NCBI GenBank assembly: GCA_963841435.1
Contig: CAWJCS010000002.1
Span: 800,001-864,000 of the forward strand
DNA: 64,000 nt
DNA from: an uncultured delta proteobacterium
GTDB taxonomy: Bacteria > Myxococcota_A > Polyangia > Polyangiales > Polyangiaceae
Reading direction: 5' to 3'
Both the position numbers and the translations under genes were made by a program. Below are positions 20,169 to 23,938 of the stretch, one piece after another; the first letter of the stretch is position 1; each line of letters starts with the position of its first letter. A model generated the notes under the pieces. It was not told the DNA's origin. It did not search any database and was given only the letters and a program-made list of their open reading frames with translations.

Positions 20169-23111
20169 TCAGGTCGGCGCGAAACGCGGGCGGTGCACGC
20201 CCCAGACGCCGCCGAAATCCGCCACGCGCTCGGGTGCGCTCTTCGCCCAGCGGCTGAGCGAAAGTGGCAACGTCGTTTCGAACTGGAACCACAGCGCCTG
20301 GTCCGAGTAGCGGTGCGGGCGATCCGCGACCTTGGGTGACTGCGCGAGGATCCGGCGCGTGAGCGCGGCGCCGGGTCCGTGCGGCGTCATGCCGGGCGTG
20401 ATGAACAGCGCGCCCGGTGCGAAGAACGTTTCGCGCGTCGTGATGTCGCGCACGATGCCGTTGATCTCGGTCGTGCCGTTGCGATGAAAATACGGCGGGC
20501 GGAACGTGCCCTCGGTCGCGTCCCAGCGCGGGGCGAAGACCACGAGGTCGAGGCTCGCCGTGCCCGGCTCGTCGAGCGGCGCGCTCAGCACGGTGTGGAC
20601 GGACGGATCCACGTGATCGACTCGCGCGTTGCCGACGGGCGAGAAGAGCGAAAGATCGTAGACGACGGGCGTGTAGTTGCCGTGCCAGGCGACGACGTCG
20701 AAGGGTGAATGGTCCTGGCGCGCTTCGTAGAGCTTGCCGCCGAGCTTGTGCGTGAGCCGGAAGCCCGGGCTCAGGCGGTTCTCGAACCAGGCGGCAGGCC
20801 CGCGAAAATGGCGCGGATCGGCCAGGCCGTTGGCGCCTATCAGGCCGCGCTCCGGCAGCCCGAAGTGGCGGCCGTAGACCTCGGCGAGGTAGCCGCGCGC
20901 CGTCGCGTCGCGAAGTAGCACGCTGAACCGGATGCCGCGCGGCACGAGGGCGAGCTCACCGGGCCGAACCTCGAGTGCTCCAAGCTCCGTCAGCAACGTG
21001 AGCCGGCCCTGCTGCGGCAAGAGCAAGAGGTCACCGTCGGCGTTGCAGACGGCGCGCTCCTCCATGCTGCGGTTGGCGGCGTAGACGTGCACGGCAAAGC
21101 CACGCCGCGCGGCGGCGGAGCCGGAGCCCCCGATGGTGCGCACGCCGGCGACGAAATCCGTGGGTGTGACGGGCGGGGCGAGCGGCGCGAAGCCCGTGAG
21201 GTTCGCTTCGAGCGGCTCGGCGCAAAAGTCGTCGGAGAACAGCGCGCCGTCGAGTGGCACGAACGGTGAGGCGTTGGTGCTCGGCCGTACCCGGTACATC
21301 CAGACGCGCGCGTTCTCGGCACGCCGAGCCGTGAAGCCGGTGCCGTTCAGCTGCTCGGGGTAAAGGCCGTAGGGCGCGTGACGTGGCGTGTTCTGGGCCG
21401 CGGGCAGGGCGCCGGGGAGCGCCTCGCTCGCATGGTGGTTGCCGAAACCGAGCGGCGCCGGCGGCGGCGCTCGCCCGGCGAGCGCGGCGTGCGCGAGCAG
21501 GCGGTGCTCGGCGTGGAGGGTGTGCGCTTCGCCCGCCGCCATGGCGAGCGTCACGTCGAGCCCGGCTGTCGCGAGGTGCTTGGCGGTGCGCTCAACGTCA
21601 CCCTCGCCGAGCCAGGGATCGCCGCGGCTCGCTCCGACGAGCACCGGCATGCCGCGGAGCGCGCTCGGGGGCGCGAGCTCTTCGCCCGGTGCGCCGATGT
21701 TTGCGCCCGAGAGCGCGACGACGCCTGCGAGCCGCTCGCTCCGCCTCGACGAGAGCTCGAGCGCGAGACACGCGCCCTGTGAGAACCCGTACAAGGCGAC
21801 GTGCTCCGCGCCCGCCTCGGAAACGGCGTGATCGAGCACCTTGCCGGTTGCGGCGAGAGCGCCCTCGAGCTCGGCGAGCTCCCGTTTCGGCGCGCTGTAG
21901 CGCCCGGTGTACCAGGCGTTGTCCGTCGCCTGGGGTGCGAGGATCGCGAGCTCGGGATCGTCACCCGTGAGCTCGAGCACGCGAGCGACGGCGCCGTCCG
22001 CCGTCGCGCCACGCCCGTGCAGCGCCACGATCACGCGTCGCGCCGTCGCCGGCGCGGGGCCGTGCACGGCGACCGGTTCGGAGAGGCCGAAATCCTCGTG
22101 GCGCGTCGCACGTGAGGGGCGGCGGCCGTGGTACGCGCTCCGGAGCAGCGCACGCGGTAGCTCCGCGTGGGACAGAAGGATCGCGTCGAGCTTCGCGAGC
22201 GTCACGCCGAGCGCCTTGAGCGAGGTGGGTGCGCCCGCGCGTACCAGGGCATCGAACAGCCCTGCTTCCAGGTCACCCACGGCGAGGCGCGCTTCGACCT
22301 CTCGTACGACGGGTGCGTGGGTCGCACGGGCGGCGTGCACGGTGTGCGGGAGCAACGCGGCGTGCAGCGCGCCATGCTCGAGATCGAGCATGCCTCCGAG
22401 CCGGTGAACGAGCTCGTGGTGCGCCCCCACTTTCGCGCCCTCGAGCAGCCGGGCCGCCTGAGCCGCGCCGCGCAGCGCCGCGGCGCGCGCGCCAGGGTCC
22501 ACGGGTGAGCGCAGGATGCCGTCGATCGCGCCGTAGACGCGCTCGATCGCCGCGAGCGCCTGCTCGGAGCGCTGTTCGCCGTCGGCCGTCGTGAGGAGCG
22601 TGCCGAGCGGATGGGCCAGCGCGTTGAGCAGGCTCGTGACGCTGAGTGCCTTGGGCATGTCGAGCGTGAGCTCCACGTCGTGGATGACGAGGCGCGGGCG
22701 CACGCGGTCGTCCCGGCCCGTGACCTTCTTGCCGTTTTCGAGGCGGCCGTGGATGTTGGTGTGCTCGGAGCCCGAATACGTGGTGGGAATCGCCACGAGG
22801 GTGATCGCGTGCTCGAGCCCGAGCACCTTGGCGAGGCCGATGGCGGAGCCGCCACCGAGCGCGATCACCGTGTCGGCGCCGCTTGCCGCGAGCGCCTGCG
22901 TTGCTTCGGCGACAACGTCCTCGGGTACGTGGCGGCGAGCGCCCGAGTAGACGCCCACGGCTCGCTCGCCGAGCAGCGGCTTTACCCGGTCGAGGTAGCG
23001 CTCACTCGGCCCCGTCACGACGAGCACACGGCGACTGCCGAGCGCGTCGAGCGCTGCCGGCAGCGCGGCGAGCTCGTCCGCCTCGAGTGGTGGGCCCGGA
23101 ACCGCGCTCAC
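20169..23111 (-). CDS. hmgA: Trifunctional fusion: maleylacetate reductase (Fe-ADH) + phospholipase/carboxylesterase alpha/beta-hydrolase + homogentisate 1,2-dioxygenase
   Basis: GGGSAIGLAK, IPTTYSGSE, NALAH, HHELVHRLGG (MAR); LHGRG, GFSQGA (esterase); GFGNHHASEALPGALP, YPEQLNGTGFT, DHSPFDVVAWHGNY, PPYFHRN..TE, MTPHGP (HGD with Fe ligands His/Glu/His). Confidence 0.88.
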   Translation of the reverse strand: MSAVPGPPLEADELAALPAALDALGSRRVLVVTGPSERYLDRVKPLLGERAVGVYSGARRHVPEDVVAEATQALAASGADTVIALGGGSAIGLAKVLGLEHAITLVAIPTTYSGSEHTNIHGRLENGKKVTGRDDRVRPRLVIHDVELTLDMPKALSVTSLLNALAHPLGTLLTTADGEQRSEQALAAIERVYGAIDGILRSPVDPGARAAALRGAAQAARLLEGAKVGAHHELVHRLGGMLDLEHGALHAALLPHTVHAARATHAPVVREVEARLAVGDLEAGLFDALVRAGAPTSLKALGVTLAKLDAILLSHAELPRALLRSAYHGRRPSRATRHEDFGLSEPVAVHGPAPATARRVIVALHGRGATADGAVARVLELTGDDPELAILAPQATDNAWYTGRYSAPKRELAELEGALAATGKVLDHAVSEAGAEHVALYGFSQGACLALELSSRRSERLAGVVALSGANIGAPGEELAPPSALRGMPVLVGASRGDPWLGEGDVERTAKHLATAGLDVTLAMAAGEAHTLHAEHRLLAHAALAGRAPPPAPLGFGNHHASEALPGALPAAQNTPRHAPYGLYPEQLNGTGFTARRAENARVWMYRVRPSTNASPFVPLDGALFSDDFCAEPLEANLTGFAPLAPPVTPTDFVAGVRTIGGSGSAAARRGFAVHVYAANRSMEERAVCNADGDLLLLPQQGRLTLLTELGALEVRPGELALVPRGIRFSVLLRDATARGYLAEVYGRHFGLPERGLIGANGLADPRHFRGPAAWFENRLSPGFRLTHKLGGKLYEARQDHSPFDVVAWHGNYTPVVYDLSLFSPVGNARVDHVDPSVHTVLSAPLDEPGTASLDLVVFAPRWDATEGTFRPPYFHRNGTTEINGIVRDITTRETFFAPGALFITPGMTPHGPGAALTRRILAQSPKVADRPHRYSDQALWFQFETTLPLSLSRWAKSAPERVADFGGVWGVHRPRFAPT

Positions 23112-23938
23112 GGGCTCTCCAAGTGGAGGAGCGCGCGCGCCTCGCTCGGGGTTGCGATGCTGCGGCCGTGCTCGCGGGCGAGCGTGGCGACGCGGGCGAC
23201 GAGCTCCGCGTTGCTCGCGGCGAGTCGATGCTCGTCGAATCGCACGTTGTCCTCGAGCCCGGTGCGAACGTGCCCACCGAGCTCGAGCGACCAGCGGTTC
23301 ACCGTGAGCTGGTGCTTGCCCATCCCGGCGGCCGTCCAGCTGGCGCCCGGCATCACGCTGGCGAGCTCGCGCACGAGAAACTCGAAAAGCTCACGTCGGG
23401 CCGGCAGCGCGTTCTTCAGGCCGAGCACGAACTGCACGTGCGCCGGCGCGCGGACGAGCTGCCGCTCGACGAGCGCGGCCGCGTTGTAGAGCATGGCGAC
23501 GTCGAACACCTCGATCTCGGGCTTGATCCCGCGCGCCAGCATCTCGCTTGCGAGCCCCTCGATGAATTCGGGGGGATTCTCGTACACGGAGGTGGGAAAG
23601 TTCACGGAGCCCGTCGCGAGCGAGGCCATGTCGGGTCCGAGATGAAGCATCGAGCCACGCTCCGCGAGCGAGCGCCCACGGCCACCCGTCGAAAATTGGA
23701 CGATCATGCCCGGGCAGTGCTCCTTCACGCCCTCCATCACGCGCGCGAAGCGCGAGGGGTCCGAGGACGGGTGACCCTCGTCGTCGCGGACGTGCACGTG
23801 CACGAGTGCGGCGCCGGCCTCGTAGGCGGCCTGGGTCGACTCGATCTGTTCGCTCGGACTGATCGGGACGTTCGGATTGTTCGCCTTCTGCGGAAGGGAG
23901 CCGGTGATGGCGACGCTGATGATGCAGGGCTCGGCCAC
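23108..23938 (-). CDS. beta-keto acid cleavage enzyme (BKACE / 3-keto-5-aminohexanoate cleavage, DUF849)
   Basis: IISVAITGS, NPNVP, GAALVHVHVRD, STGG, PDMASL, GGHVRTGLEDN; stop overlaps the start of the fusion gene. Confidence 0.92.
   Translation of the reverse strand: MAEPCIISVAITGSLPQKANNPNVPISPSEQIESTQAAYEAGAALVHVHVRDDEGHPSSDPSRFARVMEGVKEHCPGMIVQFSTGGRGRSLAERGSMLHLGPDMASLATGSVNFPTSVYENPPEFIEGLASEMLARGIKPEIEVFDVAMLYNAAALVERQLVRAPAHVQFVLGLKNALPARRELFEFLVRELASVMPGASWTAAGMGKHQLTVNRWSLELGGHVRTGLEDNVRFDEHRLAASNAELVARVATLAREHGRSIATPSEARALLHLESP

Follow-up and report, generated by a model that had tools for sequence, protein, structure and literature searches.

The fusion gene and its operon

The window analyzed here is a stretch of 64,000 nucleotides (contig C2, positions 800001-864000) from the genome of an uncultured soil member of the Polyangiaceae, in the phylum Myxococcota (assembly of 7.78 Mb in 6 contigs, 95% complete). 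It contains, on the minus strand, an apparent operon of three genes, the last of which encodes a fusion of a reductase, a hydrolase and a ring-cleaving dioxygenase that is the subject of this analysis. The two preceding genes encode a beta-glucosidase of the GH1 family and a BKACE protein. Coordinates are those of the window unless another contig or a locus is named.

20169..23111, minus strand: triple-fusion gene (reductase, hydrolase and ring-cleaving dioxygenase); a single open reading frame (ORF) of 980 amino acids (aa) with a GTG start
22182..23081, minus strand: domain 1 of the fusion (residues 11-310), Fe-ADH fold, maleylacetate-reductase-like; PF00465 and PF25137
21501..22043, minus strand: domain 2 (residues 357-537), Abhydrolase_2 or carboxylesterase-type serine hydrolase; PF02230
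20199..21449, minus strand: domain 3 (residues 555-971), HgmA-fold dioxygenase (HGD*, see below); HgmA_N and HgmA_C
23108..23938, minus strand: BKACE gene, coupled to the fusion; PF05853, 320.5 bits, and NF053568, 452.2 bits
23965..25296, minus strand: GH1 beta-glucosidase, at the head of the apparent operon; TIGR03356, 548.6 bits (cut-off 478.5)

The original prediction had described this gene as one 980-aa ORF that carries three enzymes and has no methionine in either linker. Both points are borne out: the Pfam domains of all three enzymes are present, their catalytic residues are intact, and the linkers (residues 311-356 and 533-555) lack methionine. In domain 1, Pfam identifies Fe-ADH at residues 11-145 and ADH_Fe_C at residues 158-310. 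The closest solved structures are three maleylacetate reductases, 3hl0 (2.9e-53), 3jzd (5.1e-53) and 3w5s (2.5e-50), and the next, different iron-containing alcohol dehydrogenase (Fe-ADH) in the PDB search follows only at 2.8e-16; thus, the domain is nearer to the solved maleylacetate reductases (MARs) than to other Fe-ADHs. It also contains the GGGS nucleotide-binding motif (GGG86-88), which, together with a cluster of histidines (232/236/246/250), is invariant in 24 aligned fusions. This domain is the sole MAR-like gene product of the genome. Domain 2 matches Abhydrolase_2 (PF02230) at residues 357-532 with 37.6 bits against a cut-off of 23, and DLH at residues 430-537, and contains the G-x-S-x-G elbow and a Ser-Asp-His triad; the HGRG motif, GFS444QG, D498 and H530 are all invariant across the aligned fusions. 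Its closest PDB entry is 4h0c, annotated 'phospholipase/carboxylesterase' (1.5e-22). Domain 3 comprises HgmA_N (residues 555-820, 333.7 bits) and HgmA_C (residues 822-971, 110.7 bits) and matches human and Pseudomonas homogentisate dioxygenase (HGD) in the PDB search; its iron ligands, His876, Glu882 and His911, are likewise invariant in the 24 fusions.

The fusion of three enzymes is real. The prediction had proposed a search for this domain architecture, and relatives that carry it were found: among the 120 best hits from 5.8 billion proteins, 119 contain both the Fe-ADH and the HgmA families, the exception being one partial sequence of 745 aa, and 117 contain PF02230. These relatives are 963-1019 aa long and 48-69% identical to the window protein (not counting the window protein itself, at 100%, and the partial sequence of 745 aa, at 63%), and the named sources among them are Polyangiaceae, Nannocystaceae and 'Deltaproteobacteria' metagenome-assembled genomes (MAGs). 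Because the full-length fusion is conserved in independent assemblies, an assembly artefact, a frameshift or a chance origin is ruled out by the 119 relatives. Literature searches yielded no description of the fusion itself.

The linkage between the reductase and the dioxygenase is not limited to the triple fusion. Wherever a sampled locus includes enough sequence for a judgment, HGD* is either fused or adjacent to the reductase. The triple fusion is present in the window genome (G000) and in genomes G245, G182, G152, G192 and G272, and is cut by a contig end in G007. A double fusion without the hydrolase is found in G215, G165 and G295 and in 16 of 75 metagenome loci; G111 and G252 combine a reductase-hydrolase fusion with a separate HGD* gene, and in G240 and G289 the reductase and HGD* are encoded by adjacent genes. 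Such linkage in both fused and unfused architectures, a 'Rosetta-stone' arrangement, shows a functional tie of ring cleavage to the reduction of a C=C bond, and the distribution of the hydrolase shows that it is a frequent accessory of the reductase-HGD* pair. A separate case is genome G162 (92% complete, 440 contigs), which encodes a 568-aa reductase-hydrolase fusion with an AMP ligase gene directly after it (L065:3299-6525) and in which no HGD* was detected at E <= 1e-20.

The upstream genes point to the fate of the product. The translational coupling of BKACE and the fusion, also part of the prediction, is evident from the overlap of the BKACE stop codon TGA with the GTG start of the fusion (GTGA), and the gap between the GH1 and BKACE genes is only 26 nt. 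The BKACE, the only one in the genome, passes the NF053568 model for 3-oxoadipate:acetyl-CoA acetyltransferase (452.2 bits versus a cut-off of 350; residues 3-274 aligned with profile positions 2-273 of 274). A BKACE gene is placed likewise in L018, a locus from a Polyangiaceae MAG, and in 13 metagenome loci, and the complete order GH1-BKACE-fusion recurs in 7 metagenome loci. The expected co-occurrence of BKACE with the fusion across genomes holds in part. Of the triple-fusion loci that could be evaluated, 9 of 28 have an upstream BKACE (0 of 9 for double-fusion loci), but in relatives its place is taken by a 3-oxoacid CoA-transferase A/B pair, which shows translational coupling with the fusion in 5 loci. 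Operons of the latter type often have a divergent LysR gene beside them (L053, L054, L055). No pcaI/scoA-family gene was found in the window genome. BKACE thus alternates with CoA-transferase next to the fusion. A 3-oxoacid that can be used by both enzymes is 3-oxoadipate, whereas acetoacetate is not productive for BKACE. That part of the prediction in which a maleylacetate-type product is reduced to 3-oxoadipate for BKACE to consume fits both the NF053568 score and this alternation. In a report on Methylobacterium, G4 BKACEs (DUF849) are proposed to replace pcaIJ in pca clusters (PMC8963497).

The dioxygenase clade and the tyrosine pathway

By sequence comparison, the dioxygenase domain belongs to a distinct clade of HgmA-fold dioxygenases that is paralogous to HGD; this MAR-linked paralogue clade is denoted HGD* here. 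The window domain scores 442-445 bits with TIGR01015, the hmgA equivalog model, below its cut-off of 510.75. All eight HGD* tested fall under this cut-off (405-455 bits), whereas all six canonical myxobacterial HGDs exceed it (608-675 bits). In a maximum-likelihood tree, 26 HGD* and 8 canonical sequences are split with an SH-aLRT value of 100, and genome G252 carries an HGD* and a canonical HGD together. Active-site residues were compared across 36 rows, which represent 33 distinct loci, drawn from 301 sampled genomes of the phylum and from two MAGs. Each of the 17 MAR-linked rows carries Thr or Ser in place of human His365, lacks the G-x-Y-D-A-K loop (human Tyr350) owing to a deletion of two residues, and has Asn instead of Met after the iron-binding Glu; all 19 other rows retain the His and YDAK. 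In the window domain, the His365 position is occupied by Thr905, invariant across the 24 aligned fusions, and the loop is shortened and lacks the Tyr. Thr or Ser at the His365 position combined with the absence of the YDAK loop can serve as a sequence rule that separates the two types of dioxygenase. The Thr/Ser type accounts for 105 of 121 near-length sequences (the reference and its 120 best database hits). The named hits, which include Labilithrix and Haliangium, are all labeled homogentisate dioxygenase or iron-containing alcohol dehydrogenase. The HgmA-family chain of PDB entry 9pz4 likewise lacks His365 and Tyr350.

The remainder of the active site is conserved. The window domain, 42% identical to the solved HGDs, keeps the 2-His-1-carboxylate iron site (His876, Glu882 and His911, equivalent to human His335, Glu341 and His371) and His833, the counterpart of His292; HGD* also retain Pro295 and Pro332. 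A structural model of the domain (pLDDT 87.3) superimposes on human HGD (1ey2) over 406 residues (VIA-align 2; Z 52.1, rmsd 2.7 A), so that the predicted fold is unchanged from that of HGD. In true HGD, as described in a preprint, the carboxylate of the substrate chelates the iron and His365 relays protons (10.64898/2026.06.02.729205). The loss of His365 and of the Tyr350 loop would be compatible with a substrate that has no acetate side chain.

The original prediction placed the fusion in a route of homogentisate degradation independent of fumarylacetoacetase (FAH), as a replacement for the absent enzyme. It is correct that FAH is not encoded near the fusion: none of the four PF01557 matches of the genome lies within C2:800001-864000, and the TIGR01266 profile has no match anywhere in the genome. 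Nevertheless, the premise of a missing FAH route fails because the genome holds a separate set of tyrosine degradation genes. Contig C1 encodes an aromatic amino acid hydroxylase, a 324-aa FAH (FAA_hydro_N_2 and FAA_hydrolase domains) and a MaiA that scores 245.7 bits, over the equivalog cut-off of 171. HPPD is encoded about 10 kb from these genes, and its stop codon abuts the gene for a short HgmA-family protein.

C1:14577-15731 (L017:4577-5731), minus strand: short-form HgmA-family protein, 384 aa, directly after HPPD; 42 bits on TIGR01015

The short-form protein holds the operon position that belongs to the canonical HGD in other Myxococcota. Canonical HGDs are located in FAH-maiA-HPPD-HGD operons (L068, L069, L038, L040, L041), and the FAH and HPPD homologs of G250 and G115 are parts of such operons with canonical HGD. 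The short form is found directly behind HPPD in the fusion-type genomes G182, G152, G111, G240, G295, G007 and G215, and other HGD* genomes carry FAH-(maiA)-HPPD-short-HGD operons. The short-form family is very large (7958 of 8000 scored candidates at E <= 1e-10), and its members are annotated by JGI and NCBI as homogentisate 1,2-dioxygenase. In G215, there are two separate pairs of HPPD and short HGD (C2:412566-414862 and C4:201559-203684 of that genome), the second short HGD being only 41% identical to that of the window genome.

The locus of the fusion is independent of HPPD, MaiA and FAH. None of these genes is present in any of the 75 metagenome HGD* loci or in the genome loci L052-L067. 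Furthermore, three of the 14 HGD* genomes (G165, G192 and G272, 94-98% complete) lack HPPD (E <= 1e-30), FAH (E <= 1e-40) and the short HGD altogether, and G245 contains only a weak HPPD-like match (113.6 bits).

These observations bear on two alternatives in which HGD* acts on homogentisate. The first is the predicted FAH-independent lower pathway, in which either the reductase converts maleylacetoacetate to succinylacetoacetate and BKACE yields 3-oxoadipyl-CoA and acetoacetate, or hydrolysis gives maleylacetate that is reduced to 3-oxoadipate, the substrate of BKACE. This scheme draws on the intact iron triad and His292 within the HgmA fold, on the HGD* domain being the strongest match of the genome to the hmgA model, and on the constant linkage of the reductase to the dioxygenase; in addition, a BKACE or a CoA-transferase, which could activate acetoacetate, adjoins the fusion, and a neighboring glutathione S-transferase (GST) could serve as the isomerase. 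However, the HGD* tested all score under the hmgA cut-off, and neither His365 nor the Tyr350 loop is present in the clade; FAH, MaiA and HPPD, the last coupled to the short-form HGD, are encoded elsewhere in the genome; three HGD* genomes have no HPPD, FAH or short HGD; no metagenome locus includes HPPD, maiA or FAH; and both HGD types coexist in G252. The conversion of maleylacetoacetate to maleylacetate and acetate needs cleavage next to a carbon that is stabilized by a carboxylate only, so that release of maleylacetate by the hydrolase appears chemically unfavorable. Thus, what stands of the original model is the fusion itself, the tie between the reductase and the dioxygenase, and the path from 3-oxoadipate to BKACE, whereas homogentisate as the substrate appears unlikely. 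The second alternative is that HGD* is an ordinary HmgA that feeds MaiA and FAH and that the fusion has no meaning for the pathway. Annotation pipelines indeed label these proteins 'homogentisate 1,2-dioxygenase', but the separation of the clade, the sub-threshold scores and the altered active site argue against such a role, as do the linkage with the reductase that is conserved across fused and unfused forms and the presence of HGD* in genomes without HPPD or FAH, while the short-form HGD sits in the HPPD operon. This alternative can be considered extremely unlikely.

A predicted hydroquinone pathway and the neighboring genes

A different substrate is suggested by a fungal route. In Aspergillus niger, the HmgA paralogue MhdA (NRRL3_10111) is reported to cleave methoxyhydroquinone to 4-hydroxy-6-methoxy-6-oxohexa-2,4-dienoate, the methyl ester of maleylacetate (PMC8336404). 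An unidentified reductase then produces 4-oxo-monomethyl adipate, and the neighboring carboxylesterase OmeA (NRRL3_10110) is held to give 3-oxoadipate, as stated in the same report and in a review (PMC8336404; PMC12388069). Because the three domains of the fusion would supply the activities of MhdA, the reductase and OmeA, and BKACE or the CoA-transferase would take the product, the window locus is, with somewhat better than even confidence, a module, catabolic or detoxifying, by which a 2-substituted and most likely O-substituted hydroquinone is converted to 3-oxoadipate and then to succinyl-CoA and acetoacetate, the substrate being a prediction. Literature searches retrieved no bacterial pathway of the MhdA type.

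In the proposed pathway, the HGD* domain, with its remodeled pocket, would open the ring between the substituted carbon and the neighboring hydroxylated carbon, giving a maleylacetate derivative; with an O-linked substituent, methoxyhydroquinone being the model case, the cleavage product would be a maleylacetate ester. The MAR-like domain would then reduce the C=C bond with NAD(P)H, and the serine esterase domain in the middle of the fusion would free 3-oxoadipate. From this compound and acetyl-CoA, the coupled BKACE would form succinyl-CoA and acetoacetate, a task that the CoA-transferase would perform in other lineages. The GH1 enzyme at the head of the operon might, speculatively, release the hydroquinone from an aryl glucoside. 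Lineages without the esterase might rely on substrates, for example hydroxyquinol or halohydroquinones, from which maleylacetate arises directly, or else the esterase could be encoded elsewhere. The order of the steps and channeling of intermediates within the fusion are inferred.

Convergent with the fusion operon, at 15555-19103 on the plus strand, is a cassette of four genes:

15555..17096, plus strand: AMP-forming acyl-CoA ligase, first gene of the cassette; PF00501 and PF13193
17093..17869, plus strand: citryl-CoA-lyase-like protein (short citrate-synthase fold); NF004868, 307.3 bits (cut-off 193)
17893..18606, plus strand: glutathione S-transferase; GST_N and GST_C
18615..19103, plus strand: small VOC or glyoxalase-fold protein of about 162 aa; PF00903

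The same genes are recurrent neighbors in 91 related loci, where GST is the most frequent (25 loci), followed by the ligase (19), the VOC protein (17) and the lyase-like gene (12). The window GST itself was rejected as a MaiA candidate (68 bits with the maiA model versus the cut-off of 171). The citryl-CoA-lyase-like and VOC proteins of the window are, respectively, 80% and 86% identical to their homologs in L071. The lyase-like gene is found in six of the 301 genomes of the phylum sample, kin rather than independent occurrences, of which five have HGD* and the sixth (G162) has only the reductase-hydrolase pair. In G192, all four cassette genes precede the fusion on one strand and form one operon with it, beside a divergent LysR gene. 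In L094, L095 and L098, the ligase directly follows the fusion on the same strand and a GST is encoded further on; the genes resolved between the two are that for the lyase-like protein (L098) and that for the VOC protein (L094 and L095). The cassette could represent either a CoA-linked variant of the pathway or a layer of glutathione-dependent detoxification.

The former possibility, in its full form, is a pathway in which the ligase would form a CoA ester of an aryl or acyl compound, the substrates of HGD* and the reductase would be thioesters, the hydrolase would be a thioesterase, and the lyase-like enzyme and the VOC protein would process the chain. The operon of G192, the position of the ligase in L094, L095 and L098, and the distribution of the lyase-like gene are all in line with this scheme; the Abhydrolase_2 family includes thioesterases, and a thioester side chain would likewise be compatible with the loss, in HGD*, of the residues that handle the carboxylate. 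Yet the whole cassette is present in only 5 of the 14 HGD* genomes, BKACE and the CoA-transferase act on free 3-oxoacids, and a precedent was sought and none was found, all of which makes a CoA-linked pathway very unlikely.

The latter possibility resembles the defense against quinone and hydroquinone stress by MhqED: the GST, the VOC protein, the esterase and the dioxygenase would remove toxic electrophilic quinones, and 3-oxoadipate would be an incidental salvage product. GST and small VOC proteins being the commonest neighbors is consistent with such a role, and a homolog of the hydrolase domain is found near a GST, in an operon of the form VOC-x-hydrolase, in Pseudomonadales MAGs. In Staphylococcus aureus, MhqE and MhqD are reported to be induced 35- to 67-fold by methylhydroquinone (PMC6798810). 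Conversely, the tight coupling to BKACE or CoA-transferase and to GH1 points to recovery of carbon, and the adjacent regulators are of the LysR type and not of the MarR type. Stress defense, which overlaps the hydroquinone-to-3-oxoadipate interpretation and differs from it mainly in the physiological role, appears quite unlikely.

Several observations weigh against the hydroquinone interpretation. The esterase is not obligatory, being absent from the 16 metagenome loci and the three genomes (G215, G165 and G295) with the double fusion; the core chemistry may not need ester hydrolysis, in which case hydroxyquinol or a halohydroquinone would fit. No enzyme that forms hydroquinones, such as a vanillate hydroxylase, is recurrent near the fusion in the 91 loci, nor is any monooxygenase, thiolase or other hydroquinone-forming gene. 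The interpretation also leaves the cassette unexplained, even where, as in G192, it forms one operon with the fusion. The CoA-transferase pair exceeds the cut-offs of TIGR02429 (236.5 bits) and TIGR02428 (268.8 bits), NCBIfam models that do not separate PcaIJ from ScoAB, that is, 3-oxoadipate from acetoacetate as the substrate. A clear HPPD is encoded in 10 of the 14 HGD* genomes, and the retained iron triad, His292, Pro295 and Pro332 could still allow HGD* to act on homogentisate. Finally, the parallel with the fungal pathway is one of protein families and shared activities: a paralogous dioxygenase, an esterase and a tie to an enzyme that consumes 3-oxoadipate were found here, and it is through these traits, and not through sequence, that the locus was compared with MhdA and OmeA.

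A broader version of this interpretation is that HGD* is a widespread bacterial family of hydroquinone ring-cleaving enzymes misannotated as homogentisate dioxygenase, and that the Myxococcota fusion, together with the cassette and GH1, constitutes a new route for mineralization of plant or fungal O-substituted, possibly halogenated, hydroquinones and their glucosides, with an exit from the beta-ketoadipate pathway based on BKACE and not on thiolase. This version is tentative and, as a whole, rather doubtful. If the hydroquinone interpretation is right, thousands of database entries labeled 'homogentisate 1,2-dioxygenase' or 'iron-containing alcohol dehydrogenase' would be a different enzyme with a different substrate. 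Bacteria would possess an equivalent of the fungal route for methoxyhydroquinone, of relevance to the guaiacyl units derived from lignin, and this equivalent would contain the reduction step whose fungal enzyme has yet to be identified. The natural three-enzyme fusion would also be a compact engineering part for conversion of aromatics to beta-ketoadipate, and the alternation of BKACE and CoA-transferase beside the same fusion would be field evidence for the in vivo role of G4 BKACEs.

Several other features were observed around these genes. In L079, L082, L085 and L090, the triple fusion is immediately preceded, on its own strand, by genes for an ABC ATPase and an ABC-2 permease; in L093, an ABC ATPase without the permease is found upstream. 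The Pseudomonadales operon (L021:4465-6346) encodes a VOC protein, a 124-aa protein of no named family and a 312-aa Abhydrolase_2 hydrolase that shares 33% identity with residues 277-476 of the fusion; the nearby GST is at 8565-9308. Next to the cassette, a 420-aa ORF (19048-20310, plus strand) has an N-terminal half rich in Pro and Ala and matches no Pfam family. At its 3' end it overlaps with the final part of the fusion gene, its tail resembles out-of-frame sequence, and a shorter ORF with a high GC content at third codon positions (19835-20140, plus strand) is nested in it. Elsewhere in the window, a type III glutamine synthetase (GSIII_N, Gln-synt_C and Gln-synt_C-ter; 33699-36314, plus strand) is preceded by a protein with a SnoaL-like domain at 32310-33689. 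The segment 51351-53368, of low GC in the composition profile, consists of 1573 A directly followed by 445 T and is almost certainly an artefact of assembly or polishing. Just ahead of it, at 50833-51326, a 148-bp unit is repeated 3.3 times with 96% identity; each unit contains a stretch that resembles the reverse complement of the 3' half of a tRNA (TGGTAGAAAGCGCGCCCGAAAGGATTCG), and ARAGORN called no tRNA in this segment.

Comparison with known systems

A close parallel in chemistry is the MhdA route of A. niger. As in that route, an HmgA-family dioxygenase would act on a hydroquinone other than homogentisate, the C=C bond would be reduced and a carboxylesterase would give 3-oxoadipate. The dioxygenase and the esterase, encoded by genomic neighbors in A. 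niger, are fused in the window protein. The two systems differ in that the route described there is fungal and uses separate genes, with the reductase unidentified, whereas in the window a single bacterial polypeptide includes a MAR-like domain.

With the canonical HmgA-MaiA-FAH pathway (TIGR01015, TIGR01262 and the FAH family), the window domain shares the HgmA fold, the iron triad, His292, Pro295 and Pro332. Unlike canonical HmgA, it fails to reach the equivalog cut-off, has neither His365 nor the Tyr350 loop, and is never clustered with HPPD, MaiA or FAH.

The Lin and Pcp pathways for (chloro)hydroquinones convert substituted hydroquinones to maleylacetate and then to 3-oxoadipate, by means of a GST (LinD/PcpC), a dioxygenase (LinE/PcpA), a maleylacetate reductase (LinF/PcpE), a CoA-transferase (LinGH) and a LysR regulator (LinR/PcpR). 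Their ring-cleaving enzymes have the VOC fold, and they involve no fusion, esterase or BKACE. GST, maleylacetate reductase, CoA-transferase and LysR are the gene kinds common to these pathways and the HGD* loci. The ring-cleaving domain of the fusion has the HgmA fold, and the neighboring VOC protein is only about 162 aa long, compared with about 320 aa for the VOC-fold dioxygenases of the Lin/Pcp type.

The MhqR regulon of Bacillus and Staphylococcus combines a dioxygenase, MhqE, which we take to be an enzyme of a fold other than that of HgmA, with the hydrolase MhqD. The label 'phospholipase/carboxylesterase' is shared by this hydrolase, by the Pfam family of the second domain of the fusion and by 4h0c; the regulon is not known to include a reductase or a link to 3-oxoadipate, unlike the fusion locus. 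In S. aureus, a phospholipase/carboxylesterase is reported to be transcribed together with a ring-cleavage dioxygenase and to respond to methylhydroquinone by induction (PMC6798810), and it is this mhqED operon that the VOC-x-hydrolase operon of the Pseudomonadales MAGs recalls.

Finally, the G4 BKACE of Methylobacterium belongs to the protocatechuate branch (PMC8963497), whereas the BKACE of the window is coupled to the triple fusion and alternates with a CoA-transferase in related loci.

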